Position numbers and translations under genes: made by a program. A DNA stretch of 64,000 nucleotides, from the IMG/VR virus record IMGVR_UViG_3300023048_000002, positions 32,001-96,000 of that record. One strand, written 5' to 3'. The stretch is from a virus (lineage: Duplodnaviria; Caudoviricetes). The notes under the pieces are model-generated. The model made no database searches and was not told the DNA's origin. It was given only the letters and a program-made list of their open reading frames with translations. Below, piece after piece: positions 4,341-29,923 of the stretch; position 1 is the first letter of the stretch; each line of letters starts with the position of its first letter.

Positions 4341-4368
4341 TTTTAAATCCTTAATAGGTGTCTAAAAA

Positions 4369-4376
4369 TATTTATA
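4369..4376 (-). promoter_or_regulatory. T4-type late promoter
   Basis: Exact TATAAATA about 30 nt upstream of the 4340 start. Confidence 0.6.
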
Positions 4377-4405
4377 GTCCGTTAAAAAGCGTGAACCTGA
4401 GAGCC

Positions 4406-8345: not shown

Positions 8346-8762
8346 TTAAAATTCTTTAATTTGAATTGAAAGACTTTTTAATACATTACTCATGCTAGTT
8401 GCAGTTGCTTCTAGCATTAAATCGAATGTAAATGGAGCATAGTAATCCATTTCAGGATCACCATTTTCAAGAAATGTCGTACACTTAAGGCCTGAAAAAT
8501 CAAGATTCTCAACTCGTGCAATGAAGATGACAATATCTTTCTTCTTTGTATAGTCAAATTTCCCAAGGAACTTAAGGTCTGATTCTTGAAAAACCAAACC
8601 AGATTCTTCCTGACATTCACGAAGGGCAGTCTGTACGAAAGTTTCACCTTCGTCCTGACGACCCTTGAAGATATCCCAATGTTTATTATTTGTGGCATGA
8701 CCTAGAGCATACTGATTGCTTTGAATCTTGACTAGGATACCAGCAGAAATTACCTTAGACAT
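8346..8762 (-). CDS. Nudix hydrolase, T4 NudE-like
   Basis: SAGIL..WDIFKG and Nudix box G..DEGE....ALRECQEESGL. Confidence 0.88.
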   Translation of the reverse strand: MSKVISAGILVKIQSNQYALGHATNNKHWDIFKGRQDEGETFVQTALRECQEESGLVFQESDLKFLGKFDYTKKKDIVIFIARVENLDFSGLKCTTFLENGDPEMDYYAPFTFDLMLEATATSMSNVLKSLSIQIKEF

Positions 8763-14331: not shown

Positions 14332-14352
14332 AGCGAGAGATAAACTCTCGCT
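14332..14352. other. intergenic 8-bp hairpin without U-tract
   Basis: AGCGAGAG-ATAAA-CTCTCGCT. Confidence 0.5.
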
Positions 14353-14915
14353 TAATTTTTATCGAATACCTGTCCGATATCATAGATTCGCTTAAAGCTG
14401 GAATCGGTTACATTCCATGGCATATCCATAAGTATAGTGTTCTCAATTTTACTATGAGTTGAAAAATCGTTACAGTTGTCTATATTATCGTCTACGGCCA
14501 TAATCACGTTATCATAAATGTTTGCATAGTAAGATTTCTTGATCGTATGGCTTGACACATGAATGTTGTCATATGGAATACCATTACGGTCGAACCATTC
14601 CTTCGTCACGTTGTACGCGTCAGGGTGGTAGCCTCTGGACGTAATGATGACGATCTTATGGCCCTGATCCTTCAGTGCGGTGAGTGTCTTCAAAGAGTTA
14701 TCGTATGGCTCCATAGTAGTAAGAATATCGCTGTCAATGATCGCGTCAAATAGGTTCTCGATTGAGATACCATAAATGTCTGTAATATTGAAGCAATTCC
14801 ACTGCTGCCAAGGAACGCTCTTCTTTGAGTATTTATCCAGAACTTTTTGCATTGGAACCTTGAGATTACCTAGCGTATCGTCAAGATCGAAAATGCATAC
14901 TTTACCTGATTTCAT
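14352..14915 (-). CDS. 5'(3')-deoxyribonucleotidase-like HAD phosphatase
   Basis: FDLDDTL, ITSR, T..WF, AVDDN, PWN. Confidence 0.85.
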   Translation of the reverse strand: MKSGKVCIFDLDDTLGNLKVPMQKVLDKYSKKSVPWQQWNCFNITDIYGISIENLFDAIIDSDILTTMEPYDNSLKTLTALKDQGHKIVIITSRGYHPDAYNVTKEWFDRNGIPYDNIHVSSHTIKKSYYANIYDNVIMAVDDNIDNCNDFSTHSKIENTILMDMPWNVTDSSFKRIYDIGQVFDKN

Positions 14916-14989
14916 CTGTATTCCTTGAAATTTGGTGGAGTATATCTCACCAAGGGTGGGTTAAACGAGAAAAAACGCCTGATCAATGA

Positions 14990-15691
14990 TCAAGCGTTTA
15001 ATATGCTTTCTTTTGTTAGGATTTCTTTTACGAAATTCATACCATCAGTTGCTTTCATTTCCAGATGGAGAAAGTCTTGAATTGAATATAACATATTAGG
15101 ATCGATGATGACTCCTGTGGTACCCTTTGGCATGTACGTGTGCAAATGTGATGCTGGGAATACTTCTAAAGATGTTCCAACGATGATATATGCATGAGAC
15201 TTCTTGACTGCTGCTATGGCATCTTCATAACGCTTGACATTCTCACCGAACCATACAATGTCAGGACGCATAGGAAGTCCACTCGGTGAACGATCATCTT
15301 TAGTCAGGTCTTTCTCCCAACGGAATGACTTCTCTTCACCGGCAACTTCTCTAACCTTTAGAATCTCACCATGTAAATGAATCACATTGGTTGAACCACC
15401 ACGCTCATGAAGGTCATCAATATTCTGTGTTATAACAGTTACATCATAGAACTCTTCCAACTCAGCGATGATCTTATGTGCATCATTAGGTTGTGCGGCT
15501 TGAATGTCTTTGCGACGTTCGTTAAAGAAATGTAGAACCTTGTTAGCATCACGGTTCCAGCCATCAATGGATGAGACTTCTTCAATCTTATAATGGTTCC
15601 ATAAGCCATCTACAGAATCACGGAAAGTGGCGATACCACTTTCCTTTGAAATACCTGCACCAGTCATAAAGACTAGTGATTTGCGCTCCAT
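14990..15691 (-). CDS. Sir2/CobB-family NAD-dependent deacylase
   Basis: GAGISKESGIATFR, PNDAH, TQNIDDLHE, HLHG, RPDIVWFGE, VGTSLEVFPA. Confidence 0.93.
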   Translation of the reverse strand: MERKSLVFMTGAGISKESGIATFRDSVDGLWNHYKIEEVSSIDGWNRDANKVLHFFNERRKDIQAAQPNDAHKIIAELEEFYDVTVITQNIDDLHERGGSTNVIHLHGEILKVREVAGEEKSFRWEKDLTKDDRSPSGLPMRPDIVWFGENVKRYEDAIAAVKKSHAYIIVGTSLEVFPASHLHTYMPKGTTGVIIDPNMLYSIQDFLHLEMKATDGMNFVKEILTKESILNA

Positions 15692-16254
15692 TACTTATTA
15701 CCTTCTAGAATTTTACGCTCAACATCTAGATTACGGACTTCAGCATTTTCGTCAGAGTATTTCTCTGGATAACGTGCCTGAAGCTTTGCAATGTTACGAA
15801 CCAAACCTTCTTCCCAATCAAGGCCAAGGGCATCGTTTAGAATAGCGTTATACCAACTAGCATCAGCCATTTCTTCTTGAATGTTGACTGCATCAATAGT
15901 ACCACCAGTAATGTTCTTCTGTAATGCTGAAACAAGCTCAGCGGCTTCAGTAGCAACACCAATAACACCATGGAACACACGAGGGTTTACACCTTCAAGA
16001 ACTTCTTCCTTCTGTTCGCTGTGATGACGATCAGCACAATTATCAAAGAACTTCAAACTATCGGATAGCTCTTGAAACTTCTCATTATATTTCTTTGGAT
16101 TTTTGTAATAAATCTTTTTCTTAAGGCAGTCAAGCATTTCACCGGCAGTGACGAAGATTGCTAGAACATGTAGAAGTTCATTCTTATCAGCAATAACTTC
16201 ATCAACGATTGACTCTGTGCGTAATGCTTTTTCTTGGTATTCTATTAAATTCAT
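15691..16254 (-). CDS. MazG-like NTP pyrophosphohydrolase
   Basis: YQ..ALRT, GVATEAAEL, EEMAD..WY, NIAKLQARYP. Confidence 0.85.
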   Translation of the reverse strand: MNLIEYQEKALRTESIVDEVIADKNELLHVLAIFVTAGEMLDCLKKKIYYKNPKKYNEKFQELSDSLKFFDNCADRHHSEQKEEVLEGVNPRVFHGVIGVATEAAELVSALQKNITGGTIDAVNIQEEMADASWYNAILNDALGLDWEEGLVRNIAKLQARYPEKYSDENAEVRNLDVERKILEGNK

Positions 16255-16276
16255 AAATGGGTCCGTTTAAGCGGTT

Positions 16277-16305
16277 AGTCTACCATTCATGAATCTCTTA
16301 ATCAA
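16277..16305 (-). promoter_or_regulatory. sigma70-type promoter
   Basis: TTGATT-N17-TAGACT with a TGn extended -10. Confidence 0.55.
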
Positions 16306-16313
16306 TCTAAAAG

Positions 16314-16338
16314 AAAAAGGCCGGTTACCCGGCCTTTT
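16314..16338 (-). terminator. intrinsic terminator
   Basis: AAAAGGCCGG-GTAA-CCGGCCTTTTT on the minus strand after the HNH gene. Confidence 0.8.
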
Positions 16339-16348
16339 CTGTTTCCTT

Positions 16349-16984
16349 CTAAGAATTAAGCTTTCGCTCGTAATCCTTGTAGATTGGGGAGTTCTTGCTT
16401 ACACCCTTGATAAGGAAGTCAAGCTGGTCTCCAAGAATGTGTCTATTCTCAAGAATCAAATGTTCATAGAACGATGGCTTGTATGGAAGATAATGTAGCT
16501 CAAGCTCAGCATCTGCAAGAGTCTTATTATCCTTCCAACGGTTACATGCTCCACATGCTGTTACAACATTTTCCCAAATATCTGGTCCACCTTTAGAAAC
16601 TGGATGAACATGGTCGCGAGTTAACTTACCTTTTGGGTATATGGTATTACAATATGCACAAAGATAACGGTCACGTTCGAACAACATTGCATTAGAAAGT
16701 GTCGGGCTGTATCCAGCAAGGTCACGCTTCTTTGTACGTTTGCTCTTATCATGTTTTACAGCAACAATCGTGTCCATAACTAGCACAGACTGCTGTCCAG
16801 TTGAAGCATTCATTCCACCACGAAGTGTATGTGCATACTTACCTGTTGTCCAAAGGATACGATCCTTCGCCTGCAATGTTGCGAAGTCCTGATATGTAAT
16901 CCAACGCAATGGCTCTCCTGAATCGGAAAGCTGCAAAATTTTGGGGATGTGGGTTCGCTTTTCAATTTCATGTGCAGTCGTCAT
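16349..16984 (-). CDS. HNH endonuclease
   Basis: RD..LCAYC, TRDHVHPVSKGG, WENVVTACGACNRWK. Confidence 0.9.
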   Translation of the reverse strand: MTTAHEIEKRTHIPKILQLSDSGEPLRWITYQDFATLQAKDRILWTTGKYAHTLRGGMNASTGQQSVLVMDTIVAVKHDKSKRTKKRDLAGYSPTLSNAMLFERDRYLCAYCNTIYPKGKLTRDHVHPVSKGGPDIWENVVTACGACNRWKDNKTLADAELELHYLPYKPSFYEHLILENRHILGDQLDFLIKGVSKNSPIYKDYERKLNS

Positions 16985-17013
16985 AACATATTCCTTTGGA
17001 TATTTAGTTCGTT

Positions 17014-17490
17014 CTAACCCTGTCGGACTCTGTTGAATCCTTCTGATGTATCGGGTATTTCATAGGTTTCAATCATATTTATTACAATGCCAATTGGGAT
17101 GTTCTTACCAGTTTGACGAGCGCGCTCCTTCAAACGGCTTAACAATTCTTCCTGATCAACCATAAAATACACACATTCAGTGTGATAATCCTTAGGAAAA
17201 CGAGACAGAATTTCCTTGCGTTTCTTAGCCGTAAGATTGGTTTGATCCCAAATCACATTCTTACGATTCTTAATAGCTTCATCCAACTGAACATACATAC
17301 GCTTAGTAGCTTCCTTAACCGAAGTCTTCCAGACTTCAGAGTAAGTCTTACCCTGTTCCTTGGCAATCGTTTCTACAATATCATCGGTCGAGATGATGAC
17401 ACTATCGTGAGCCATAGTACCAATGTAAGTAGACTTACCGGACGCAGGTGGACCTACCAAGACAATCAATGTTGGGGTGTTAATATTCAT
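17014..17490 (-). CDS. P-loop kinase (polynucleotide kinase-like, AAA_33)
   Basis: GPPASGKST, ISTDD, IWDQTN...R. Confidence 0.85.
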   Translation of the reverse strand: MNINTPTLIVLVGPPASGKSTYIGTMAHDSVIISTDDIVETIAKEQGKTYSEVWKTSVKEATKRMYVQLDEAIKNRKNVIWDQTNLTAKKRKEILSRFPKDYHTECVYFMVDQEELLSRLKERARQTGKNIPIGIVINMIETYEIPDTSEGFNRVRQG

Positions 17491-17551
17491 TCTTTTGTTC
17501 CTTGTATATTATCAGTCTATAAAATTAATTCAAGCTAGAATATAATTATAT

Positions 17552-17998
17552 TCAGTCTGCATTCACAAACTCTACTTCAATTCCAGCTTCAGCAAACATA
17601 GCTTTAGCAAAATCAATTTCTTCACCCCATCGAGTACGAAACTCATCTGAAGGTTCTACAGAAACGACACGCTTAATGCCAGCAGTAATCATGCTTCCGG
17701 CACATGCAGAGCATGGAAAGGTTGATACTGCCATCGTCATACCTCTTGTTGGCAGACCTTCAGCAGCACAATAGTCAAGAGCATTCTTTTCTGCATGCTG
17801 AATTAGCTTATATTTGGTTGGACGATCTTTCAGACGTTCATCATCAGCAAATGCTTCAGGGAAGCCATTGTAAGCCAAGAGACGAATGCGCTTACCATTG
17901 GCAAGTACAGCACCCACTTTGGTTGATTCATCCTTAGACCATGATGCAGCCAATCTAGCAGCATCAATCAATCGTTTATTCCACTTATCATTATTCAT
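17552..17998 (-). CDS. dCMP deaminase
   Basis: SKD.STKVGA, YNGFP, HAEKNA, PCSAC. Confidence 0.92.
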   Translation of the reverse strand: MNNDKWNKRLIDAARLAASWSKDESTKVGAVLANGKRIRLLAYNGFPEAFADDERLKDRPTKYKLIQHAEKNALDYCAAEGLPTRGMTMAVSTFPCSACAGSMITAGIKRVVSVEPSDEFRTRWGEEIDFAKAMFAEAGIEVEFVNAD

Positions 17999-18014
17999 AA
18001 TTTCTCCGTCTTAA

Positions 18015-18043
18015 ATTGTATCTTTTGAGATGTATAATGTCAA
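18015..18043 (-). promoter_or_regulatory. sigma70-type promoter
   Basis: TTGACA-N17-TACAAT. Confidence 0.75.
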
Positions 18044-18049
18044 ATATCA

Positions 18050-18057
18050 TATAAATA
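18050..18057 (+). promoter_or_regulatory. T4-type late promoter
   Basis: Exact TATAAATA 18 nt before the 18076 start. Confidence 0.6.
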
Positions 18058-18075
18058 AAGAAAAAGAGAAAAACT

Positions 18076-18441
18076 ATGAAAATTCTGCAACTTTTAGAAT
18101 CCGTGATGGATTTTGATACTGATACACAATACAAATTAACTGGCGTTAATGCATTCTCAGAAGAGAATGGGATGATCGATGGATCATTTTCATTCGTTCA
18201 AGATAATGGTGTTGTTTACGCAGTGGATATCATGGTTAACCCTAAGACCCGTGGATTTAAGTTTGGTGATATTGATATTCAAGATCATGGTACTACTCAT
18301 GATGGGAACCCTGATGACCTTAAGATTGCTATTAGATTCTTTAAGGATAACTTCCAAGAAATTGTAGCCCAACTTAAGCAAGACCTTGAAGAAAACTCAG
18401 ATGGTCAGAAACCCTTCAATCGACCAACTGCAACAGCCTAA
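18076..18441 (+). CDS. hypothetical late protein, possible internal head protein
   Basis: 121 aa; own late promoter and terminator; MKILQLLE N-terminus. Confidence 0.7.
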   Translation: MKILQLLESVMDFDTDTQYKLTGVNAFSEENGMIDGSFSFVQDNGVVYAVDIMVNPKTRGFKFGDIDIQDHGTTHDGNPDDLKIAIRFFKDNFQEIVAQLKQDLEENSDGQKPFNRPTATA

Positions 18442-18444
18442 ATT

Positions 18445-18470
18445 AAAAAGCCCGCTTTCGCGGGCTTTTT
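18445..18470. terminator. bidirectional intrinsic terminator
   Basis: AAAAAGCCCGC-TTTC-GCGGGCTTTTT between convergent genes. Confidence 0.85.
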
Positions 18471-18474
18471 ATTA

Positions 18475-19449
18475 TTACCAATCACTACCAGATGATCCAC
18501 TATCGAAGCTGGAAGAACCAGAATCAAAGCTTGAAGATGAATCTGACCAGCTAGACGAGCTAGAAGAACCGCTATCCCAACTTGAGGATGAGCTTGACGA
18601 GGAACTGGAAGAACCAGAATCGAAGGTGTCAGTATCACCATCATCAAATGTGGTTGTAGTGGTGGTTGTAGTGGTTGAACCAGAATCAAATCCACGATCA
18701 ACATGGCCGACATATGGGTCACTATAATAGTGATCACGATGATGATCAGACAATGCTTCATTAAGAAGAACACCAGTCAGCATGCCATCGACATAACCAT
18801 TATTGGTATTACCGACGATAACAGTCTGTGGGACGACTGAAGGCTGGACGATAACTGGTGATACTGGTACCGTTGGGCGAGTAACATTAGCCGATGAGTA
18901 ACGTGGAACCGGCTGGCTAACACCAGCACCATAAGTACCACTGTTTGCGGTACGAGTTACCGGCTGACTATCAACAAGATCACGATAAGCACGTTCGGTC
19001 TTATCATCGATTTCCTGCTGGCGGCGCTGGATCGACTTATAGACCCAAACAATGATGCCGACGATAACAAGGACCGCAAGGGTGCCGAAGAAGTACGGAG
19101 CAACACTACCGGACTCATGTGCAGGCTGTACCGTTGGCTGACGAACAGTCGCAGTAGTAGTCGTAGTAGTTACAGACTTTGCGACATGCTGCGAAGTAAG
19201 CTTACCAACGAAATCATTATACTTTGAAAGGCTACCTGCATAACCATGCGATGGATCGATTGCATCAGCCTTGGACAGTGCTGTACGAGCTTCGCCAGTC
19301 TTGCCGAGATGCTGTTCAACCTGTGCAAGGTAATACCAACCCTTGGCTGATTCTGGATGTTCCTGAAGGCCTTGCTGAAGGTCTTTCTCAGCCTGTGCCC
19401 AATTACCATCGCGAGTGATTTCTGTCGAGATTTCAGCGAGTGACTTCAT
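18475..19449 (-). CDS. TPR-repeat single-pass membrane protein with a Ser/Gly/Asp-rich tail
   Basis: TPR (HPESAKGWYYLAQ...AR.AL.KA..IDP), one TM helix, low-complexity C-terminus; start at 19449 from an AGGA RBS. Confidence 0.8.
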   Translation of the reverse strand: MKSLAEISTEITRDGNWAQAEKDLQQGLQEHPESAKGWYYLAQVEQHLGKTGEARTALSKADAIDPSHGYAGSLSKYNDFVGKLTSQHVAKSVTTTTTTATVRQPTVQPAHESGSVAPYFFGTLAVLVIVGIIVWVYKSIQRRQQEIDDKTERAYRDLVDSQPVTRTANSGTYGAGVSQPVPRYSSANVTRPTVPVSPVIVQPSVVPQTVIVGNTNNGYVDGMLTGVLLNEALSDHHRDHYYSDPYVGHVDRGFDSGSTTTTTTTTTFDDGDTDTFDSGSSSSSSSSSSSWDSGSSSSSSWSDSSSSFDSGSSSFDSGSSGSDW

Positions 19450-19528
19450 TGTGTGTTTTCCTGTAGGGTTATAAAAGTTTGGACACCGTTGTGGTGTCCA
19501 CACAGAATACTTCTATTAATTCTTTCCG

Positions 19529-20056
19529 TCAATCAATTGTGATTGACTGGATTGGGACCGTAACCTGATTAGTGCTAAATCCAAAGATTAACATTCCATC
19601 CTTGTTGGAAGCATAGCACCAAGTATGGTCAACAGGGATAAAAAATTTTAAGTTAAATGGCTTAGCTGTAATTCCCTTATGAACAAAGAGTTCTCTGTTC
19701 ACCCCATTAGAAAAATCTTCTGGTCTATACAAAGACCAATTATGGTCACGTTCAACAAATTCGGTTTCTTCTTTAAGACCAAAATGGTTGTAGGTCGTGT
19801 AAACATTTAAATATCCACCTTGCAAGTCAGCCTTTATATCACTACTATTGTAACCAGTAACAGCAATCTCAATGCAAGCATTGTCGTCATTGTGATATCT
19901 AATATTGAATGGCAACATTGCTTCACCTCTTAAGTGAATAGCTTCCAATGGGTATTTTTTAATCTTATTGAAATAATTACCAACTTCTTGATGTCTCTGC
20001 TTATAGTGAAGCTTTTCAAGTTCAGAATCTTTGTTTTCAATTTTAATTTCTGACAT
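19529..20056 (-). CDS. small heat-shock protein (IbpA-like)
   Basis: PFNI...IEIAVTGY...DI...L.V, HKGI..KPF..KF, DGML. Confidence 0.75.
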   Translation of the reverse strand: MSEIKIENKDSELEKLHYKQRHQEVGNYFNKIKKYPLEAIHLRGEAMLPFNIRYHNDDNACIEIAVTGYNSSDIKADLQGGYLNVYTTYNHFGLKEETEFVERDHNWSLYRPEDFSNGVNRELFVHKGITAKPFNLKFFIPVDHTWCYASNKDGMLIFGFSTNQVTVPIQSITID

Positions 20057-20146
20057 ACTATTCTCCTATGTGTTATATCAGGATATGTCCTTTCGGCTAC
20101 ATAAGTAGCTATATTTCGACTAGCCATCAACAGTCTATCATTAAAA

Positions 20147-20806
20147 TTAAACAGACGCTAGCTTTCTGATCTTGGTGGAAGACATATCATTATTACCTTC
20201 AATAAAAATATGGCGGTCTGATTCCATCAATGTCTTGTATCGTTTAAATGAATCACTCTGACTTCTACCTGCAACGATGCACTTACCCTTGTCGATAAAG
20301 GCTAGTGAGAAGTTTGCACGGTCACCACCGCAAAGGAGGTATGCATCATTGTTAAGATCAATGAGTTCCTTATACAGGCGAGTGAAGTTACGCGAACAAC
20401 CATTTTCCATAGAATCTTCAAAGATCAATGAGAAGCTAAATCCACGATAGGGGAATCGACCCAAGAGAAGGCCGAATGCGGCGGTAAAACTCTTCTCGTT
20501 GAACTTACCTTTAGAGGTACGGTATTGCTGATGATCAACATGAATGATCACGATACCTTCTGTACCATGCTTTGCAATAGCATCAATGGCTTTGATGACG
20601 GTCTCAAGGTGACCTTCATGGAAAGGATAGAATGCACCAGAATACTGAATGACCGTCTTACCCTCGGGAAGACTGAAGGTCTTAGCATAAGATTCATTCC
20701 ATGCATGAGGCTCTTGGAAATATCCAGCCTGTAGACAGAAGTCATATCCATACTTAGCTTCAATGGTTTGAAACCAAGGGTCTAGACAATCAAGTTCAGT
20801 AGCCAT
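20147..20806 (-). CDS. HxGH nucleotidyltransferase (NadD/cytidylyltransferase-like)
   Basis: YSGAFYPFHEGH, CGGDR, MSSTKIRK. Confidence 0.8.
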   Translation of the reverse strand: MATELDCLDPWFQTIEAKYGYDFCLQAGYFQEPHAWNESYAKTFSLPEGKTVIQYSGAFYPFHEGHLETVIKAIDAIAKHGTEGIVIIHVDHQQYRTSKGKFNEKSFTAAFGLLLGRFPYRGFSFSLIFEDSMENGCSRNFTRLYKELIDLNNDAYLLCGGDRANFSLAFIDKGKCIVAGRSQSDSFKRYKTLMESDRHIFIEGNNDMSSTKIRKLASV

Positions 20807-20831
20807 AATTATATTCCAATGTCAATATCGT

Positions 20832-21665
20832 TCAAAAACCGTAAGCCACATCACCCCTGATGATATAACGGTGCCCATCACCCACATACTTCTCCACCTG
20901 ATGGCAGAGCCAGTGAGGGAAGATCAGCAAACGCCCCTGCTTAGGGGAAACACTCATGATAACCTCATTACTCATTTCTGTCCAGTCTGAGCGATCCTGA
21001 AACATAGGATGAATATGATGCTGATGATCCTTAACAAACTGGAAGTTACCGCCAGTACCACTAGGAGTATTGAGATACAGAACCCATGAGAAGAGAGTTG
21101 TATAACGCTCATCTGTGTTAACGAATGGTGCATCATAATGTGGAGTATGCATTCCACCATCAGCATACTTCATAAAACGAAGCCATGGTGTTGATCCAAG
21201 AAGTTCATAGCGTTCTTCAGGTTCAAACGGAGTTGCCATTACAGGCTGATATGAACCCGGACAATCCTTGCGCTCATACTTGTATGGCTGCATAAGAGTA
21301 TGCATACCACCGATCTTGGTACGAACAAATTCACGGATAGGAACCATATTGTGAATTTGCTTAGTAATGACATCTGCAAAGTCTGTACCCCAAGCCATGG
21401 CGCGATGCGACCCAGCATTCTCTTCAGTATTAGCAAAACCATCAATACCCACTGGATATTGAATTTGATCATCAAACTGACGGATCAGGCTTGCACACTG
21501 CTCAGCCGAGATAATGTCATCACCCCAAATAATAGGATATTCAGAATAATGATTGATGATTCGTTGCTCACGAATACCAAAACGCTTCTGTTCTTTGAGG
21601 ATAGATGGGTTCCATTCCGGCTTCGTATAGAGTCCACCAGTCTTATAAGCATTGAGGTTGTGCAT
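20832..21665 (-). CDS. 2OG-Fe(II) oxygenase (prolyl-4-hydroxylase-like)
   Basis: RFMKY..GG.HTPHYD, LYLN...GG, P.QG.LLIFPH..CH, RYIIRGD. Confidence 0.88.
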   Translation of the reverse strand: MHNLNAYKTGGLYTKPEWNPSILKEQKRFGIREQRIINHYSEYPIIWGDDIISAEQCASLIRQFDDQIQYPVGIDGFANTEENAGSHRAMAWGTDFADVITKQIHNMVPIREFVRTKIGGMHTLMQPYKYERKDCPGSYQPVMATPFEPEERYELLGSTPWLRFMKYADGGMHTPHYDAPFVNTDERYTTLFSWVLYLNTPSGTGGNFQFVKDHQHHIHPMFQDRSDWTEMSNEVIMSVSPKQGRLLIFPHWLCHQVEKYVGDGHRYIIRGDVAYGF

Positions 21666-21778
21666 GGGATGTCTCGTGATTTGATAACGCTATTATTTCT
21701 CAACTCCATTAGAAGTCAAGATTAAGTTTACTTTAAAGATGAATAGGTGTAAAATATAACGACTAATTGAGTAGTTGA

Positions 21779-22114
21779 ATGAAGTTACATCTTACACAAA
21801 GGGATTTCAAGGATATATGGAATCAGTTAAAGGCATCAGCAAAGAAACGTAATATTGAATTCACGTTGCTGCCATCTGACATAGACGAGATTGGCATTCC
21901 TATCACCTGTCCCATCCTTGGGATACCATTAAGCTTCCATCGCAATAAGGTACAGGCTGACTCTATAAGTTTTGATAGAATCGATTCAGCTAAAGGTTAT
22001 TCTATTGACAACGTGATAGTTGTATCGTACCGAGCAAATATGCTCAAGTCTAATGCAACGTTAGATGAAATGCGAAAAATCGTTAACTTCTATGAAGAAT
22101 TAATTAAAGATTAA
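21779..22114 (+). CDS. small HNH-like endonuclease, antisense to the operon
   Basis: CPILG, SFDRIDSAKGYSIDNVIVVSYRANMLK. Confidence 0.75.
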   Translation: MKLHLTQRDFKDIWNQLKASAKKRNIEFTLLPSDIDEIGIPITCPILGIPLSFHRNKVQADSISFDRIDSAKGYSIDNVIVVSYRANMLKSNATLDEMRKIVNFYEELIKD

Positions 22115-22964
22115 TCTGTGATATCGCTCCAATGATTTTCGAATATGCGTACTTACGGAATCCTTCCAGTCTCGGATATGCATGTTGACCGGGGAACGGC
22201 AGATTGTATTTGTGTCGATTGCGATGAATATTGTTAACCACAAATGTTGTAGGATCATCAACATTTTTAATCGCATTAATGAGATTGGTTCGATCATCAG
22301 TAGTGTCACTAACATTACTCGCTTCATAGGCAACCTTTTCAATCTGTGGATATGTTGCCCCAATCATCTTATAATCGTTAAGGTCACCTGACCACTGTAG
22401 ATCACCAGATGGTACCGCATCGATGATTTCCTGCGGAACGCCAAGCTCCTTAGCTAGTGCATATACTTCAGACTTGTGAAGATGGCTAATCGGATAGTAG
22501 TCCTGTGCAGCGTCAGAAGCCTTACCCCAAAATCCAAGGTAAGCAGCTTCATCGAAATTAACAGTACCAACAACCACTGGCTTCAAACCATGGCAGTGTC
22601 GCTCGGCAGCAATACCATAGAAGTAAGCATTACGGATGATGGGGAGTGCAGCTTCCTTGCCTGCTTCGTTCAGATATCGCGGATTCTCCATTTCAAGATA
22701 ATCCCAACGCATCATATAATCTTCATGATCGTGAGCTTCATGCATTGCAGCAACAAAATCCATGGCAATCATCGGTGATGAAAGCTTCTGACCTTTGAAG
22801 CACGTCTGAAACACTGTGGTTGGAATTCCTGCATGATGAAGAACAGCAGCGGTAGTAGCCGAATCGATACCACCAGAATAGCCTACGATTGCTTCGTTGA
22901 GACCACTGGTCTCAAACCATCGCTTAACGTGGTTGAGAAGCCTTTCTGTAGATGCACTGTACAT
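22104..22964 (-). CDS. nadE: NH3-dependent NAD+ synthetase
   Basis: GYSGGIDS PP-loop, VVGT.N.DE..LGF..K..D, PI.HL.KSEVY.LA..LGVP..I....PS.DL. Confidence 0.9.
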   Translation of the reverse strand: MYSASTERLLNHVKRWFETSGLNEAIVGYSGGIDSATTAAVLHHAGIPTTVFQTCFKGQKLSSPMIAMDFVAAMHEAHDHEDYMMRWDYLEMENPRYLNEAGKEAALPIIRNAYFYGIAAERHCHGLKPVVVGTVNFDEAAYLGFWGKASDAAQDYYPISHLHKSEVYALAKELGVPQEIIDAVPSGDLQWSGDLNDYKMIGATYPQIEKVAYEASNVSDTTDDRTNLINAIKNVDDPTTFVVNNIHRNRHKYNLPFPGQHAYPRLEGFRKYAYSKIIGAISQINL

Positions 22965-22966
22965 GA

Positions 22967-23560
22967 TTAACCCTTCAAAGTTTGATTGACGATTTCCTTC
23001 ATTGGAGCAAACAACTCTTCTGGCAATGAAGTGCGCTTCGAAAAGAATAACGGATTAATTAGATAGTTGCAAGCACTAATTCCATTATCGGTCTTCAGGA
23101 GTGAGTTGTTCATGAACAAGTCTTCCATGTCGATGAGGTCTTCATTCTTAAACAGACGTACCGGAACGGTGTAACTCTCCGTACCCAACAGCGACTTAGC
23201 CAGATGCATAGTCTGACCATGAACCATATCAGTATCAATGATATGAATCATGCCAGTATAAAGTATTTTCTTCCTGATTGGCATAGGCTCCCCAACAAGA
23301 CGGTTGACCACATCACCATGTTCATTGAACACTCGTGAAATCTGAAAATAATCTATACCAAATGCATCAGCAAGATGACGATCTAGAGACACATGAAGAT
23401 GTTCAAGAATTTGTGGTGGAAAGATACCAAAGTCTTCCTTATTAGGAACACGATGATCCACAACCCTAATCTCCGAACCAAGTTCCTTACGAATGAGACC
23501 GCTCACTTTGTCAAGATAGTGCATACCTTCTTCGGTATGCACTCTGAGAATGTATTTCAT
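22967..23560 (-). CDS. divergent phosphoribosyltransferase-like protein
   Basis: IHIIDTDMVHGQTM resembles the type I PRTase PRPP loop (hhhhDDhhxTGxT); sits between nadV and nadE. Confidence 0.45.
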   Translation of the reverse strand: MKYILRVHTEEGMHYLDKVSGLIRKELGSEIRVVDHRVPNKEDFGIFPPQILEHLHVSLDRHLADAFGIDYFQISRVFNEHGDVVNRLVGEPMPIRKKILYTGMIHIIDTDMVHGQTMHLAKSLLGTESYTVPVRLFKNEDLIDMEDLFMNNSLLKTDNGISACNYLINPLFFSKRTSLPEELFAPMKEIVNQTLKG

Positions 23561-23568
23561 AGCTATCC

Positions 23569-24969
23569 TTACTTAACGAAATAGGCATTAGCACGTTCAC
23601 GAACTTCATCAAAGGTCGTTTCTTTGACGATCATACCATGCTTAAACACGATTTCAAGCTCTTCTTTGCGTTCCAGTGGGTCTTCCAGACGAATAGTAAG
23701 GTAATTACCGTGATCATCCTTGACAAGACCTAGGCGGCCCTGCTTTGAGGTCTTACCATTATCATCAATCGGCTGTTTGTATACATCGACCCATTCATTG
23801 TTTACCAGAGCAGCAGAGCATTTCTGTGCAAACTTAAATGTATCACGATTGACCATCTGCAAAAGACCGCCACCCATTCCAAAGTTAAGATTTTCAGTGC
23901 TGAAACCTTCAGCCTTAAGATTCTCAAGAATCAAAGGAATCGTTTCAAGAGTGATACCATCACCCTGAATCACACGGATGTGATCAGGAAGCACTTTGTA
24001 TCCCTTGCTGTTAACTGTAAACCCTTCAAGTTCGGCAATCATCTTAACCAACTTGATAGGAACAAGAGTCGGATCACCAGAGTCAGGACGGATGACTACA
24101 CGAGCGCCAGCAGCCTTTACGCGGTCGAATAGACCACCCTTGCTCCACATGTTCTCAACAGCATTGTAGATGTTGTAACTATCAGAGACTACTGCAAAGA
24201 TTGCGCCCTTCTTGGCATACTGATCAACCATGTTCGAATAAGCGTCAAACTCATTCTCACGCTTCCAGCTAGTGATGGTTGAATGCTCTGCGGCAGGGAT
24301 CGAATATGCGCAAACATCAGAACCATAATAATTCATGGCACCAACGATGGCTTCAACGGTGTCAGAACCCATGAAGTTAACGATATGGCCCATACCACCA
24401 AGCATGGCGCTTTCTGCACTACTGACACCACGAGCGCCGAAGTCATGAAGCATGAAATTCAGACTATCAAGCTGGTCAGAGGTTTCAAGAAGATACTTGT
24501 GCATGATCTTCTTACAGGTATAAGAAAGAGTAGCAACCGTTGAAGGATACCAGATGGCACGAAGAAGTGCTGTTTCAATATATGAAGGAAGCCAGAAAAG
24601 GTTCGGGTCTGACGTGTGAACGGTGAGAAGGACATTGTGCAGTGGAATCACAGAACCTTCCTTTGCAGACTTGATCGTCAGTGGAAGATATCCATCATGC
24701 TTTTCTACAATGTATTTCCAACCATCATAGTTGAACGGTTCGCCATGCTTTGCTGCGAAGGTGTTAGCAAATTCAACATCAGCCATTGTGATGGGCTTGC
24801 TAAGGTATTCTTTGAGATAAGCCTGAAGGCCAAAATAAAGTAGTTCATCAGTGAACTTGCAGCCACGGGATTCAATATAGCTGAATACATCAGTGGTGCC
24901 TGCGGGATACTGAAGCCAATGAGACATCTTATAGCTATCAGCGCGTAGAATTGTGTGTAGTTTAATCAT
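23569..24969 (-). CDS. nadV: nicotinamide phosphoribosyltransferase
   Basis: DSYKMSH, HDFGARG, NFMGSDT (Asp of nicotinamide specificity), SIPAAEHS, VSDSY, RPDSG, IQGDG, GGGLLQ. Confidence 0.95.
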   Translation of the reverse strand: MIKLHTILRADSYKMSHWLQYPAGTTDVFSYIESRGCKFTDELLYFGLQAYLKEYLSKPITMADVEFANTFAAKHGEPFNYDGWKYIVEKHDGYLPLTIKSAKEGSVIPLHNVLLTVHTSDPNLFWLPSYIETALLRAIWYPSTVATLSYTCKKIMHKYLLETSDQLDSLNFMLHDFGARGVSSAESAMLGGMGHIVNFMGSDTVEAIVGAMNYYGSDVCAYSIPAAEHSTITSWKRENEFDAYSNMVDQYAKKGAIFAVVSDSYNIYNAVENMWSKGGLFDRVKAAGARVVIRPDSGDPTLVPIKLVKMIAELEGFTVNSKGYKVLPDHIRVIQGDGITLETIPLILENLKAEGFSTENLNFGMGGGLLQMVNRDTFKFAQKCSAALVNNEWVDVYKQPIDDNGKTSKQGRLGLVKDDHGNYLTIRLEDPLERKEELEIVFKHGMIVKETTFDEVRERANAYFVK

Positions 24970-25006
24970 GATCCTTAACTCCTAAGTGATTTCGATTATG
25001 TGTTGT

Positions 25007-25046
25007 ATTGTGCGTGACAAAGAAATATTTGTCAAGTTTATTTATG
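25007..25046 (-). promoter_or_regulatory. tandem late (CATAAATA) and sigma70 promoter of nadV, with an inverted repeat
   Basis: CATAAATA 25039-25046; TTGACA-N17-CACAAT 25007-25035; TGACAAA-N6-TTTGTCA 25015-25034. Confidence 0.55.
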
Positions 25047-25191
25047 TTTCATCTGGAACAATGTGGTACTTTGGTCTTTTACGTACAGGCTCTAAATTTT
25101 TTAGAAGCTTTATACTTTCAGAATCATATATAACAGTCTTCTCTATTTCAAAATCACTGTTAGGTAATGGTTTGACAATGAAATCTTCCAT
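25042..25191 (-). CDS. hypothetical 49 aa protein, not in the ORF track
   Basis: Hand-translated MEDFIVKPLP...; TAATG overlap. Confidence 0.5.
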   Translation of the reverse strand: MEDFIVKPLPNSDFEIEKTVIYDSESIKLLKNLEPVRKRPKYHIVPDET

Positions 25192-25382
25192 TACTGTTCC
25201 TGCGGCCACTTAACAGCATCGGCACGACCACGAAATACTTCCCATGCTGCCTTTAGCTTCTCAAACCTGAAAGCACCACTAGCTGGACGTGCTGGCACGT
25301 AACCATCTTTACCGTTGCTAGATTGCACTCCACCATTGTTGGCATATTCAACAAGGTCTTTTAGATTCCACATTGTACTCAT
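25191..25382 (-). CDS. hypothetical protein
   Basis: 63 aa, YVPARP...KAAWEVF.G.ADAVKW. Confidence 0.7.
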   Translation of the reverse strand: MSTMWNLKDLVEYANNGGVQSSNGKDGYVPARPASGAFRFEKLKAAWEVFRGRADAVKWPQEQ

Positions 25383-25383
25383 A

Positions 25384-25650
25384 TTAATCCTTGGTCTTTA
25401 CGTATGGTTTAGTTTGCATTGAATTAGAAGGATCAATGTAATAAACCTGTCCAACACTATGTGTGAATTCATTATATTGTTTCTGAATGCCTTCAACCGT
25501 AGCATATCGATTATAAAAATCTTGACCATTGCCAAGGTTCATCGGCCAACCACACAAGTATACAATTTGATTGTCAGGCGGGACAGGCACGTTGGCCTTG
25601 TCACCACCCCATAACTCTTTATAGAACTCTAAATCTAATGGGTAATCCAT
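25384..25650 (-). CDS. hypothetical protein
   Basis: 88 aa, AAGGA RBS. Confidence 0.65.
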   Translation of the reverse strand: MDYPLDLEFYKELWGGDKANVPVPPDNQIVYLCGWPMNLGNGQDFYNRYATVEGIQKQYNEFTHSVGQVYYIDPSNSMQTKPYVKTKD

Positions 25651-25674
25651 ACTGTTCCTTAAATGTGTTAGATA

Positions 25675-26913
25675 TTACTTACGCATGATAACCTTATCTT
25701 CAACCTTGGCAATCCAATAGTTGATCTGACACATGTGATCCTCAAAGATTTGATCGCGCATTCTACGGACTTCTGCCAAATTAAACCACCATGCTTCAGC
25801 AGCATCGTCCATACCCTTGACGCGAGGAAGACCACGCGAATCATCAAGAGCATAGCAATGAGACTGTGAGATAGTACGGCCAACCTTCTTACCACAGCGA
25901 CCACGAAGTGAACGGTCAGGATGATCGAAGGTCTTTTCACCAACATAACTACCGATAAGAACCTTATCTGGAATCTTCAAACCAGTCTCTTCCTCAAGCT
26001 CACGAAGTGATGCTGTGAAGGAATTCTCGTTGCCGTTGATGTGTCCACCCGGAAGTGCCCATAGACCCTTACCCGGATGCTTGGCACGTTTGATCAATAG
26101 GATATGTCCTGACTGAATAATTACATTGTCAGCGCAGTAGAAATTGGTAATGACCTCGTAGTCATGTTCCTCTTTGATCTTATCCTGAAGCTCTTCGAAT
26201 GGCTTCTGATATTCAAGATCGAAATCATACCAGTCCTTTACATACTGGAACTTCTCGGTCTTCATCCACTGTTCAATATAATTTGCCGTACCTTCAGGAA
26301 GAAACTTCTTAAAGTTAAGATCACCATCGTAGATCATCTTACGGATATCGGTTGCATTGACCAGAGTGCCTTCTTTGGTGTAGGCAAGAGTGGTCTCAAG
26401 CGGCCATTTCGGGAACATATTCAAATAGAAAGATGAATCGTCCTTTTCATAGCCAACGACACAAATCTTTGCGGTATGTGCTTCGTCACGACCATTAACG
26501 CGATACTTGGAATAGTCCATGACCACGGCATCGACAGCTTCATACATAAGTGCCTGCCATTCCTTATCCTGATAACGACGATCTTCTACGGCCTGAAAGT
26601 GAATACCTTCAAGCTCTTCTGGCGTTAGGCCAGCTTTGATCATTTCGATACGTTCTGCGGAAGTCCATGGATTCTTCCAGTCGATAGGCTGGTTGTGGGA
26701 ACCCAATGCAACGATGACATGATCGGCAAGGGTCTTCGCATGGAGAAGATTTTCACGATGAGCTTCAGTGAATGGTTCCATACGGCCAATAAGCACTGCG
26801 AAGTTATACTTCTTTGATGCCGGTACCCAAACATCTTTGGTTGGGGTCTTACTGATTTTAACGGCACGATTAAGTTCATCGTAACCAATGGTAATTTTCT
26901 TATTCATATCCAT
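25675..26913 (-). CDS. nadM: bifunctional NMN adenylyltransferase / ADP-ribose Nudix hydrolase (NadM-Nudix, NatV-like)
   Basis: IGRMEPFTEAH, GS...KNPW...ER, G.EKD.SS.YL..FP.W, NATDIR; Nudix WALPGG..NE....LRELEEETGL, DDA..A.W, FEDH. Confidence 0.93.
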   Translation of the reverse strand: MDMNKKITIGYDELNRAVKISKTPTKDVWVPASKKYNFAVLIGRMEPFTEAHRENLLHAKTLADHVIVALGSHNQPIDWKNPWTSAERIEMIKAGLTPEELEGIHFQAVEDRRYQDKEWQALMYEAVDAVVMDYSKYRVNGRDEAHTAKICVVGYEKDDSSFYLNMFPKWPLETTLAYTKEGTLVNATDIRKMIYDGDLNFKKFLPEGTANYIEQWMKTEKFQYVKDWYDFDLEYQKPFEELQDKIKEEHDYEVITNFYCADNVIIQSGHILLIKRAKHPGKGLWALPGGHINGNENSFTASLRELEEETGLKIPDKVLIGSYVGEKTFDHPDRSLRGRCGKKVGRTISQSHCYALDDSRGLPRVKGMDDAAEAWWFNLAEVRRMRDQIFEDHMCQINYWIAKVEDKVIMRK

Positions 26914-26936
26914 AACTCCTATGTGATAGTGATTGA

Positions 26937-26964
26937 ATTGTACTGCTAAACGTATTTATGTCAA
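26937..26964 (-). promoter_or_regulatory. overlapping sigma70 and late promoter of nadM
   Basis: TTGACA-N16-TACAAT with embedded CATAAATA (26953-26960). Confidence 0.6.
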
Positions 26965-26967
26965 GAA

Positions 26968-27231
26968 TTAATAGTGTGCATCAATGGCTAGTTCATGTCG
27001 GCCCTCACTATCTTTGAAGATAAGAGGTGACCAAGCTAGAATATAATTTGATTCACCACGAGGAATAGTCTTCCAATTTTGGTTTTCAAAATAGTGATCT
27101 TCGATTCTTTCGATTATAACTGGAACCTTCTGAATTTCTTCGTCAGAAAGTCCCTTATTCTTCAACCTGTCGATAGTTTCAAGTAGATCACCAACAGTAC
27201 AGTAATGCTTATAGAGAATATAATCACCCAT
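26968..27231 (-). CDS. hypothetical protein
   Basis: 87 aa ORF. Confidence 0.65.
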   Translation of the reverse strand: MGDYILYKHYCTVGDLLETIDRLKNKGLSDEEIQKVPVIIERIEDHYFENQNWKTIPRGESNYILAWSPLIFKDSEGRHELAIDAHY

Positions 27232-28256: not shown

Positions 28257-28765
28257 TTATTCCTTTACTAGCTGCTCACGGACTTTCTCAAGGACTAGAC
28301 CTAGAAGATTGTCACCTTGCCACTGTGATTTATTAATTGCACGAGGATCATTGGCTGACATGCCAATTCCCCACACCTTATCATACGGTGAAGCTTCAAC
28401 GATTTCAAGACCAACGGTTGCAAGTAGAACCTTGGCTGCATCTGGATTCTGTTGGAACTTGGCTAGGCAACCCTCATAGACTGCATCAAAGCGAACCTTA
28501 GCCATGCTGCGTCATTATAATCCTTTACCTGACGACCAATGGCCTTAATTTTCTTTGGGTCTTTTGACTTGAGGATGCTGGCGGCTGCAACGGTGTCGTT
28601 GAACAGCATGGCTTTGCGATACATCATATAGTGTTCTGATGTATGAAAGAGAATGTCATCCACAAAGAAGGATGACTTATGCCAGTTGGAAAGGGGACTA
28701 CCCCAAAAGAACGCGAAGCCGCTATTAACGGAAATTCCGTAGTCGGAAAGATTTAGTGTGTTCAT
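28257..28765 (-). pseudogene. NADAR/YbiA-family ADP-ribosylglycohydrolase broken by a 1-nt frameshift near 28503 (real or sequencing error)
   Basis: N-half FFW..PLSNW..SEHYMMYRKA.LF.D..GRQV and C-half AKF.QN..EASPYDKVWGIG..W.G.NLLG..L are in different frames. Confidence 0.85.
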
Positions 28766-29227: not shown

Positions 29228-29923
29228 TTATTTTATTATCGACTTGACATAGTTAGACAATGAATGATACTTAAATGGGTTGGAGAACTTTCCTTTCGAT
29301 TTAAGTTTAAGAGTATTGTTAGGCCTAAACCAGCGATAAAGTGGTATACTAAAGGGAATCCAAGTAACGAAGTCTTGCATTATACGATACGATGTGCTTG
29401 ATTCAGATAGAAACTTATCTTTAAATAATAGGTTAGGTGATGCAAAGCATACACACTTCGAAGACTTCGTATAGCTTATATTATACAGAGATGCTACCGC
29501 CGCACCCAACGAGTGTCCGGTGAAGATGATCTGCTTACCTTTGTCAATAGAGTTGATGTAATCCTTAATGAATTGCTCATATCTCTTATGATAAAGAACA
29601 AAGCCACCATGGGCTTTTAGATCATACATAAAATACTTCGGAACAAAGTTAAGAATGATCTTCCAGTTAGACCACATGGAAGGTTCCGTTCCCCTGAATG
29701 CAATATAGATTGCATCTGATGTTTCCCCAATAAGACACTTCATACCTTGATACTCAAGTATCTTATAAGGTATATCTAGCTTGTCTAAATTTTTTGCAAT
29801 GAATGAATTTGAGAAGTACGCTAACGAAGAAAGTCCTAACGCGTGCGTTAGGACTTTCTGGTCATCTTGCACATCAGCCATTCGCTTCAAAAGCGTTCTT
29901 ATGACTAAAAGTTTTGCTTTCAT
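29228..29923 (-). CDS. class 3 lipase (alpha/beta hydrolase)
   Basis: IAFRGTE, AHGGF, FTGHSLGAAVA, FASP, DFV..IP, HSL..Y. Confidence 0.88.
   Translation of the reverse strand: MKAKLLVIRTLLKRMADVQDDQKVLTHALGLSSLAYFSNSFIAKNLDKLDIPYKILEYQGMKCLIGETSDAIYIAFRGTEPSMWSNWKIILNFVPKYFMYDLKAHGGFVLYHKRYEQFIKDYINSIDKGKQIIFTGHSLGAAVASLYNISYTKSSKCVCFASPNLLFKDKFLSESSTSYRIMQDFVTWIPFSIPLYRWFRPNNTLKLKSKGKFSNPFKYHSLSNYVKSIIK

Follow-up and report, generated by a model that had tools for sequence, protein, structure and literature searches.

A four-part gene module around a NadE-like enzyme lies beside a NARP2-type pair in a phage genome and may form a Preiss-Handler-like route to NAD+

Introduction

Depletion of NAD+ is a major anti-phage strategy. 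Three phage pathways that reconstitute NAD+ (NARP1-3) have reportedly been shown experimentally, all of them starting from nicotinamide or its riboside. The DNA studied here, a 64,000-nucleotide stretch of a phage genome (the window), contains genes for NadV and NadM-Nudix close to those for a NadE-like protein and for a second nucleotidyltransferase (NT). Why should a phage that has NadV and NadM also carry these two? The region is best explained as two separate units: a NARP2-type pair and, downstream of it, a module of four parts to which the NadE-like protein and NT belong.

Results

The NARP2-type pair and the other NAD genes of the window

The named NAD genes were all found in the 64-kb window, on the minus strand (Table 1). 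A first-pass annotation had placed NadV and NadM-Nudix near NadE and a NadD-like transferase with HxGH and SSTxIR motifs, and all four were confirmed. The sirtuin, NADAR, extra Nudix and NAD-dependent ligase that it had also listed are indeed present, the NADAR gene being split.

Table 1. Features of the NAD-related region and other NAD-related genes of the window
Feature	Position	Strand	Basis or remark
NadM-Nudix	25675-26913	-	Pfam CTP_transf_like 41-111 and NUDIX 265-386; NCBIfam PRK05379 models, E 7e-78
Two small ORFs (88 aa, 63 aa) between NadM and NadV	25191-25650	-	no assigned function
NadV, Nampt-type nicotinamide phosphoribosyltransferase (NARP2 Nampt part)	23569-24969	-	NAMPT_N and NAPRTase domains
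Module gene 1: PRTase-like, candidate type I phosphoribosyltransferase, 197 aa	22967-23560	-	motifs and weak fold match
Module gene 2: divergent NadE-like PP-loop amidotransferase, 286 aa	22104-22964	-	PF02540, TIGR00552, PP-loop
HNH/EndoVII-like homing endonuclease, 111 aa (insert)	21779-22114	+	PHROG 3322 'endonuclease', E 2.9e-33
Module gene 3: prolyl-4-hydroxylase-type 2OG-Fe(II) oxygenase, 277 aa	20832-21665	-	PF13640
Module gene 4: NadD/NMNAT-fold nucleotidyltransferase NT, 219 aa	20147-20806	-	HEGH and SSTKIR motifs, fold
SIR2	14990-15691	-	NAD-related gene
NAD-dependent ligase	934-2808	-	NAD-related gene
Further Nudix	8346-8762	-	NAD-related gene
NADAR	28257-28765	-	broken into two ORFs

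NadV matches PF18127 (E 7e-27) and PF04095 (E 5e-49), and scores 616.8 bits against NCBIfam PRK09198, for which the cut-off is 405. It lies on the same strand as NadM-Nudix with ~700 bp between the genes, and a NadM homologue is present in 476 phage records. NARP2 consists of Nampt and Nmnat (Osterman et al., 2024, bioRxiv 10.1101/2024.02.11.579819), with NadV/NatV of vibriophage KVP40 as an example (Lee et al., 2017, as cited in PMC9503650). The pair in the window has the same domain architecture, adjacency and shared strand, and is ~35% identical to its homologue in the KVP40-like vibriophage nt-1. Judged from their sequences, NadV and NadM-Nudix are an ordinary NARP2-type pair, which would convert nicotinamide and PRPP into NMN and then NAD+, with the Nudix domain of NadM recycling ADP-ribose.

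The two small ORFs between these genes gave no match in Pfam and PHROG searches, and the 63-aa ORF recurs at the equivalent position in two related phage contigs, L003 and L007, with 51-70% identity. The Adps/Namat pair of NARP1 is absent from the window. PADLOC found no defence-system membership, and a promoter and terminator scan returned counts no higher than chance.

A conserved module of four parts

The NadE-like protein, NT, a PRTase-like protein and a 2OG oxygenase constitute a conserved, self-contained four-part module. Many large phages and some bacteria have it, and we observed it in ~18 loci. The cultured phages that carry it are X1 and BUDD of Xanthomonas and V45v66 of Variovorax; other loci are on contigs of Streptomyces, Burkholderia and further bacteria, and on a metagenome contig of Gram-negative origin. 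The four parts occur together in all 10 distinct loci reached through NT homologues, and the match lists of NT and of the NadE-like protein have the same long contigs in common. Gene order is conserved in related phage contigs despite only ~40-60% protein identity, so that the clustering is not due to chance. The genes mostly overlap or abut, and some parts are fused. NT is joined to the PRTase-like domain in X1, V45v66, Streptomyces, the Gram-negative metagenome contig and phage contig L046; the PRTase-like domain is joined to the NadE-like one in L030 and L032/L033. A minimal variant comprises the oxygenase and the PRTase-like::NadE-like fusion, with no transferase found nearby.

How is the module related to the NARP2-type pair? 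It adjoins NadV and NadM in the window, in L001, L003, L007 and L009, and in X1, and a complete 516-kb phage has both the module and a NadV-like/NadM-like pair in its genome. In L030 its neighbours are instead a NARP1-like pair, Nampt-like and Prs-like. At some loci NadV and NadM are far off or were not found in the record, and the complete genome of V45v66 contains the module with no NadV or NadM match; the module can thus stand alone. Conversely, Stenotrophomonas phage CM1, which has NadV and the closest NadM, has no module within the 12-kb flanks of NadM. A Pseudobdellovibrionaceae MAG with the module also encodes a canonical long NadE.

Within the module of the window lies an ORF on the opposite strand. 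We considered it as a fifth part but did not accept it, since it encodes an HNH/EndoVII-like homing endonuclease and is missing from half of the module loci. The ORF is 73-82% identical between loci where its neighbours are ~50% identical.

Megablast of positions 20000-27000 of the window against phage records gave no match, nor did tblastn of NT against phage records at 1e-5; NT relatives of the X1 type were found by profile only. A pattern scan based on the NT alignment, run over one genome per prokaryote species, returned 1 locus only.

The NadE-like amidotransferase

This protein scores 80.3 bits against PF02540 (cut-off 21, E 1.6e-22) and passes the family-level model TIGR00552 with 85 bits (cut-off 63.65). 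Its PP-loop reads GYSGGIDS, and the SGGxDS and GTxNxxE motifs are retained. It falls far under the equivalog cut-offs (PRK13980, 95 bits vs 255; PRK00768, 55 vs 250), belonging to a distinct subfamily of ~66 clusters. The substrate loop is GKASDAA compared with the canonical TKYGDGG of E. coli NadE, and is changed in all variants.

Full-length alignments in the PDB were to NAD synthetases only, Francisella NadE (3fiu, E 1.2e-16) being best and the Pyrococcus NAD synthetase (2e18, 1.3e-15) tied with it. The Francisella match was considered as a sign of NMN synthetase activity and rejected as such, given the tie and that the short NadE of archaea is a genuine NAD synthetase (PMC3376133). From tied matches the conversion of NaMN via NaAD to NAD and a Francisella-style conversion of NaMN to NMN cannot be told apart.

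The nucleotidyltransferase

The NT motifs, FHEGH at 62-66 and SSTKIR at 209-214, are both invariant across 50 members of a family of 49 clusters. NT scores 19.0 bits against PF01467, under the cut-off of 21, and 20.3 against TIGR00482 nadD (cut-off 112); fused relatives score above the PF01467 cut-off. A single-sequence PDB search gave nothing useful, and the family profile against PDB sequences matched NadR NMNAT domains best (E 0.009). In a Foldseek search with the AlphaFold model (pLDDT 94) the top 40 matches were all NadD/NMNAT (E 1.7e-7). VIA superimposed the model on NMNAT3 with Z 12.6 and rmsd 3.1 over 162 aligned residues, and ranked 45 NMNAT/NadD entries (Z 12.6-9.5) ahead of PPAT (Z ~9). 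The fold of NT, as modelled, is nearest to NadD/NMNAT. Since the NadE-like protein matches NAD synthetases only, the module appears to contain two consecutive NAD-specific enzyme types.

The PRTase-like protein

The PRTase-like family has ~40 clusters at 50% identity, in which SR...G and IIDTD..G.T motifs are invariant. A PRPP-loop pattern (hydrophobic run, two acidic residues, G-x-T) is found in the window protein as IHIIDTDMVHGQT, where D109, D111 and G115 are invariant or almost so. Bacterial fused relatives have the classical PRPP loop VLVDDDIWTGAT, and DDDSASGET also occurs in fused relatives. The window protein has no Pfam match, PF00156 included, and its relatives match PF00156 weakly (15.6-15.7 bits vs a cut-off of 26.3). 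Searches with the model (pLDDT 84) gave type I PRTases as the best matches, with PRTases in most of the top rows, at the weak level of Foldseek E 0.03 and VIA Z 5.9. Alignment of the family by hhalign to E. coli Gpt, Apt and PyrE was not significant, the PRPP loop alone aligning with probability <2%; a single-sequence PDB search gave nothing useful, and no similarity to Prs was detectable. The protein is therefore a candidate type I PRTase, weakly assigned. No type II PRTase of the PncB kind was found: in the 171-kb record, which covers about half of the genome of the phage, NadV alone matches PF04095. For this reason the PRTase-like protein is the candidate for the otherwise missing first step.

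The 2OG-Fe(II) oxygenase

The oxygenase matches PF13640 at 42.4 bits (cut-off 27, E 1.4e-10). With P4H-type enzymes (PF13640; Bacillus anthracis P4H, 5hv0) it shares the HxD...H triad and the 2OG-binding arginine; across 12 sequences, H176, D178, H251/H255 and R266 do not vary. The family profile finds 5hv0 as the best PDB match, at a weak E of 5e-4, where a single-sequence search gave nothing useful. The oxygenase is present in every variant of the module, the minimal one included, and is linked as tightly as the other parts. We know of no P4H-type enzyme in NAD metabolism, and of no place for a 2OG oxygenase in the established NAD routes; its obligatory presence counts against a Preiss-Handler-like reading of the module.

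Discussion

What might the module make? We put at about even the chance that it is a Preiss-Handler-like route running alongside NARP2, from base to mononucleotide to dinucleotide to amide, with non-canonical enzymes. Its substrates, order of steps and end product are predicted from the observed gene content, folds, motifs, synteny and fusions. The PRTase-like protein would join PRPP to a pyridine base that bears a carboxylate, nicotinate being the likeliest; NT would adenylylate the mononucleotide; and the NadE-like enzyme, whose presence is the reason for proposing a carboxylate intermediate, would convert carboxylate to carboxamide. The oxygenase would supply a fourth step, with no assigned position in the route. 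Once NAD+ has been cleaved in an infected cell and nicotinamide has been deamidated, NARP2 would take nicotinamide, and the module would use the deamidated ring to restore NAD+. The weak PRTase assignment, the loss of the canonical TKYGDGG loop, the sub-equivalog scores of the NadE-like protein and the canonical NadE of the module-bearing MAG also weigh against such a route.

The first-pass annotation had proposed that the NadE-like protein and the NadD-like transferase give NadV and NadM a second route, which might recover rings deamidated by host PncA/PncC. Both proteins are real and NAD-linked, and a route through a carboxylated pyridine is plausible. They are, however, not extras to NadV and NadM but half of a four-part module that occurs also without NARP2, so the source of mononucleotide is likely the PRTase-like enzyme of the module itself and not host NaMN.

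That only these two proteins matter, acting on host NaMN (via NaAD to NAD, or to NMN for NadM) beside an unrelated PRTase-like protein and oxygenase, would fit the restriction of clear NAD-family similarity to the pair; we regard it as very improbable, because the four parts lie together in each examined locus, with translational overlaps, and both kinds of fusion involve the PRTase-like domain. A function outside pyridine metabolism, such as amidation of a nucleotide-activated sugar or acid, or protein modification around the P4H-like enzyme, is also improbable. HIGH-motif transferases serve many substrates, P4H relatives hydroxylate proteins, and cyanophage PP-loop 'NAD synthetase' homologues occur in glycosyltransferase clusters. 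Against this stand the ranking of NMNAT/NadD over PPAT, the restriction of full-length NadE-like alignments to NAD synthetases, and neighbours that are NAD salvage and not sugar genes. The location of some phage 'NAD synthetase' genes in sugar clusters, as in cyanophage S-SSM7, is a further point against the Preiss-Handler-like reading.

Less easily set aside, while still unlikely, is a module that does not simply turn nicotinate into NAD+ but produces a modified pyridine dinucleotide, such as an NAD analogue hydroxylated on the ring or altered in another way, or handles an uncommon precursor. The oxygenase would then add or remove the modification, and private enzymes would be needed as host NadD and NadE refuse the intermediates. 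This would account for the tight linkage of the oxygenase and the altered NadE-like substrate loop throughout, and for the MAG with its canonical NadE, where a private PRTase, transferase and amidotransferase are redundant unless the intermediates are not NaMN and NaAD. A P4H-type oxygenase reveals no chemistry, however, its nearest solved relatives acting on proteins, and restoration of NAD+ is the simplest account of why the module repeatedly adjoins NARP2 and NARP1-like genes.

Clusters of pncB, nadD and nadE are annotated in jumbo phages (PMC11662467), so that a deamidated phage route has already been published at the level of annotation. The module is predicted to have three formal activities in common with PncB, NadD and NadE (phosphoribosylation, adenylylation and amidation), but PncB is type II and the module candidate type-I-like, NT and the NadE-like protein fall far under the nadD and nadE equivalog cut-offs, and the module has its obligatory oxygenase and, in some lineages, fused parts. 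The NMN synthetase route of Francisella is NadE* plus NadM (Sorci, 2009, as cited in PMC3376133). It likewise has a short single-domain NadE homologue, which in the window lies beside NadM, and the minimal variant would suit amidation at the mononucleotide level; a NadD/NMNAT-like transferase, absent from Francisella, is encoded at most of the module loci found. NARP3 is PnuC plus NadR (PMC13464706). NadR, kinase plus NMNAT, resembles the NT::PRTase-like fusion in joining a mononucleotide-forming enzyme to an NMNAT domain, but the module has neither ribosylnicotinamide kinase nor PnuC, and its input would be base plus PRPP, not riboside. NARP1 (Adps and Namat) also draws on a PRT-fold enzyme and a Nampt homologue, and the L030 variant of the module has the Nampt-like and Prs-like pair as its direct neighbours. 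For NARP2, none of the NadE, NadD-like, PRTase-like and oxygenase genes is required. Our literature searches found no paper describing the module or a 'NARP4', and the four-part module is seemingly undescribed.

It is possible, with a chance we place somewhat below even, that the module is a fourth NAD+ reconstitution pathway of phages, also present in some bacteria, with an oxygen-dependent step and a nicotinate-type PRTase from a new family, either opening a pyridine pool closed to NARP1-3 or making an analogue of NAD that resists cleavage by defence NADases. Phage 'NadE' and 'NadD' labels may conceal non-canonical chemistry, and the module is directly testable, as it is carried by cultured phages (X1, BUDD and V45v66) and by bacteria. 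If the proposal is true, two unannotated enzyme families would be added, the PRTase-like and the divergent NMNAT/NadD-like; a 2OG oxygenase would enter NAD metabolism; and the start from a carboxylated pyridine would be a new branch of the NAD arms race.

Results

The window spans bases 32001-96000 of one viral contig, 171,340 bp in length (G+C 39%; completeness ~49% by CheckV). One protein of this contig has a letter-identical copy on a 346-kb contig, which makes a jumbo phage of ~350 kb the probable source. With one exception, the long ORFs between 20147 and 26913 are on the minus strand.

Features of the window
Feature	Position	Strand	Remarks
Nucleotide-metabolism island	14352-20056	-	downstream of module
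NT5C	14352-14915	-	island gene
SIR2	14990-15691	-	island gene
MazG-like	15691-16254	-	island gene
HNH endonuclease	16349-16984	-	island gene
AAA_33 kinase	17014-17490	-	island gene
dCMP deaminase	17552-17998	-	island gene
TPR protein	18475-19503	-	island gene
Hsp20	19529-20056	-	island gene
Nucleotidyltransferase (NT), 219 aa	20147-20806	-	FHEGH and SSTKIR motifs; Pfam match below threshold only
2OG-Fe(II) oxygenase	20832-21665	-	HxD...H and 2OG-binding Arg kept; closest to prolyl-4-hydroxylases
HNH/EndoVII-like homing endonuclease	21779-22114	+	between NadE-like and oxygenase; PHROG 3322, E 2.9e-33
NadE-like	22104-22964	-	PP-loop GYSGGIDS; above PF02540 and TIGR00552 cut-offs
PRT-like, 197 aa	22967-23560	-	no Pfam match
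NadV	23569-24969	-	NAMPT_N and NAPRTase domains; NCBIfam PRK09198, 616.8 bits (cut-off 405)
63-aa ORF	25191-25382	-	between NadM and NadV; no family match
NadM-Nudix	25675-26913	-	cytidylyltransferase-like and NUDIX domains; bifunctional PRK05379 models, E 7e-78
NADAR domain	28257-28765	-	divided over two overlapping ORFs
Class 3 lipase/alpha-beta hydrolase	29228-29923	-	PF01764, E 1.6e-10; close to NADAR remnant

The first-pass annotation had described a cluster of NadV, NadM-Nudix, NadE and NadD-like genes, and profile scores, motifs and a structural model of the NT bear this out. The SIR2, NAD-dependent ligase, additional Nudix and NADAR genes that it placed nearby are all present in the window. 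NadV and NadM-Nudix constitute the published NARP2 pair, which is common and ordinary; a homologue of NadM-Nudix is present in 476 phage records. The small ORF between them occupies the same position in two related loci (L003 and L007, 51-70% identity). The NADAR domain is split, with ORF 28463-28765 covering profile positions 11-87 and ORF 28257-28505 positions 87-162. Either a frameshift or a sequencing error could account for this, or the gene may be broken. The nucleotide-metabolism island is largely syntenic with the related loci L001 and L003.

The NT was modeled from an alignment of 50 homologues (pLDDT 94). The top Foldseek matches are all NadD/NMNAT proteins (E 1.7e-7). VIA-align superimposes the model on NMNAT3 over 162 residues (Z 12.6, rmsd 3.1), and 45 NMNAT/NadD entries rank above phosphopantetheine adenylyltransferase (Z ~9). 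The NadE-like protein scores far under the equivalog cut-offs. It retains SGGxDS and GTxNxxE, and the canonical TKYGDGG loop, kept by E. coli NadE and a cyanophage homologue, is replaced in every variant. The subfamily is sharply delimited, E-values dropping from 1e-49 to 1e-30. In Synechococcus phage S-SSM7 an annotated 'NAD+ synthetase' gene (3983-4744 of that locus) lies within an epimerase, methyltransferase and glycosyltransferase cluster; its product may act on a sugar, amidating that instead of NAD, and hence not every phage gene labelled 'NadE' concerns NAD.

Two motifs stand out in the PRT-like protein: an invariant S-R...G, and an IIDTD..G.T that we read as the PRPP loop of a type I phosphoribosyltransferase. 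Fused bacterial relatives have the classical loop form VLVDDDIWTGAT, with a weak match to PF00156. Using a model of the PRT-like protein (pLDDT 84), both structure searches were topped, weakly, by mostly type I enzymes (E 0.03; Z 5.9), and an Atlas lookup, taken as a lead only, ranked a phosphoribosyltransferase cluster first (0.87). Profile comparison with E. coli Gpt, Apt and PyrE aligned the PRPP loop alone, with no significance. The protein is probably a phosphoribosyltransferase, and we treat it as a candidate.

The neighborhoods of NT homologues comprise ten distinct loci, and in all ten the NT occurs together with the PRT-like (181-206 aa), NadE-like and oxygenase genes, even though the module proteins of most are only 30-58% identical to those of the window. 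The same long contigs appear in both the NT and the NadE-like match lists. The PRT-like and oxygenase genes, unannotated neighbors overlooked in the first-pass annotation, thus belong with NadE-like and NT. NadV and NadM adjoin the module in only five of the ten. In the other five the module flanks yielded neither gene: these are a Burkholderia stagnalis contig, a Pseudobdellovibrionaceae MAG, two phage fragments and a complete 516-kb phage whose NadV-like/NadM-like pair is ~16 kb distant. On the B. stagnalis contig (L004, 3065-9220) the module adjoins genes for a Tle3-family type VI lipase effector and a KorA-like protein, surroundings that hint at a mobile or conflict-related island.

The opposite-strand endonuclease ORF was considered as a module component and rejected as an insert, because it is more conserved than its neighbors (73-82% identity among phage loci, against ~50% for the flanking genes) and is missing from half of the loci. 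Its conservation suggests recent mobility.

The module genes are also found fused. A single protein unites NT and the PRT-like family in the cultured Xanthomonas phage X1 (86% identity to phage BUDD) and in Variovorax phage V45v66; the fusion is supported by the NT profile (E 4.7e-17) and by hhalign over the two hallmark motifs (E 2.7e-5). The oxygenase and NadE-like genes come after it. In X1, NadM and Nampt lie a few kb downstream; the complete circular genome of V45v66 gave no PF04095 match, and its sole nucleotidyltransferase match was that of the module. NadE-like and oxygenase genes also accompany an NT::PRT-like fusion on a Streptomyces contig, a Gram-negative metagenome contig and a further phage contig. 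A third form has the PRT-like family at the N-terminus of NadE-like and the oxygenase ahead of the fusion, and its flanks showed no NT. Oxygenase, PRT-like and NadE-like thus make up the constant core, to which most loci add NT. In one locus of the third form (L030, 2627-7488), genes for a Nampt-like (586 aa) and a Prs-like (286 aa) protein, the NARP1 signature, are located immediately upstream of the oxygenase and the PRT-like::NadE-like fusion. Nudix and Band_7 genes are close by.

Discussion

The described phage NAD+ pathways are NARP1 and NARP2 (bioRxiv 10.1101/2024.02.11.579819) and NARP3, comprising PnuC and NadR (PMC13464706); a review of November 2026 lists none beyond these (PMC13728456). 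As NAD-synthesis enzymes of phages, a survey of NAD systems in viruses names only NadV, NadM and NadR (PMC9503650). In jumbo phages, pncB-nadD-nadE clusters were annotated in a metagenomic study (PMC11662467), and thus a phage deamidated route is not new in itself. We found nothing on the four-part module in the literature searched.

The simplest reading of the module is a Preiss-Handler-like route parallel to NARP2, in which a pyridine carboxylate would be converted to an amidated dinucleotide. The PRT-like protein would plausibly form the mononucleotide, and NT and NadE-like would perform the subsequent steps. NT and NadE-like resemble the two NAD-specific enzymes acting downstream of mononucleotide formation, and the module repeatedly adjoins NAD+ reconstitution genes. 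In its core this reading agrees with the deamidated route proposed in the first-pass annotation, whose interpretation is partly supported. The reading is limited by the obligatory oxygenase, which has no place in any known NAD route, by the altered substrate loop of NadE-like, and by the canonical long NadE also held by at least one module-bearing bacterium. A private enzyme set is most easily explained by intermediates differing from NaMN and NaAD. Speculatively, the oxygenase might make or unmask the base, oxidative N-dealkylation being one way, or oxidize a substituent to a carboxylate that NadE-like then amidates; it might also modify the ring to give an analogue, or hydroxylate a protein.

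The NT::PRT-like fusion suggests that the PRT step precedes NT, whereas the PRT-like::NadE-like fusion and the variant lacking NT suggest PRT followed by NadE-like. A PDB search with NadE-like was set aside as a guide to step order, Francisella NadE and Pyrococcus NAD synthetase being tied (PMC3376133).

The interest lies not in the ordinary NARP2 pair but in a separate, recurrent and fusion-linked module that brings two unannotated families together with an unexplained oxygenase.
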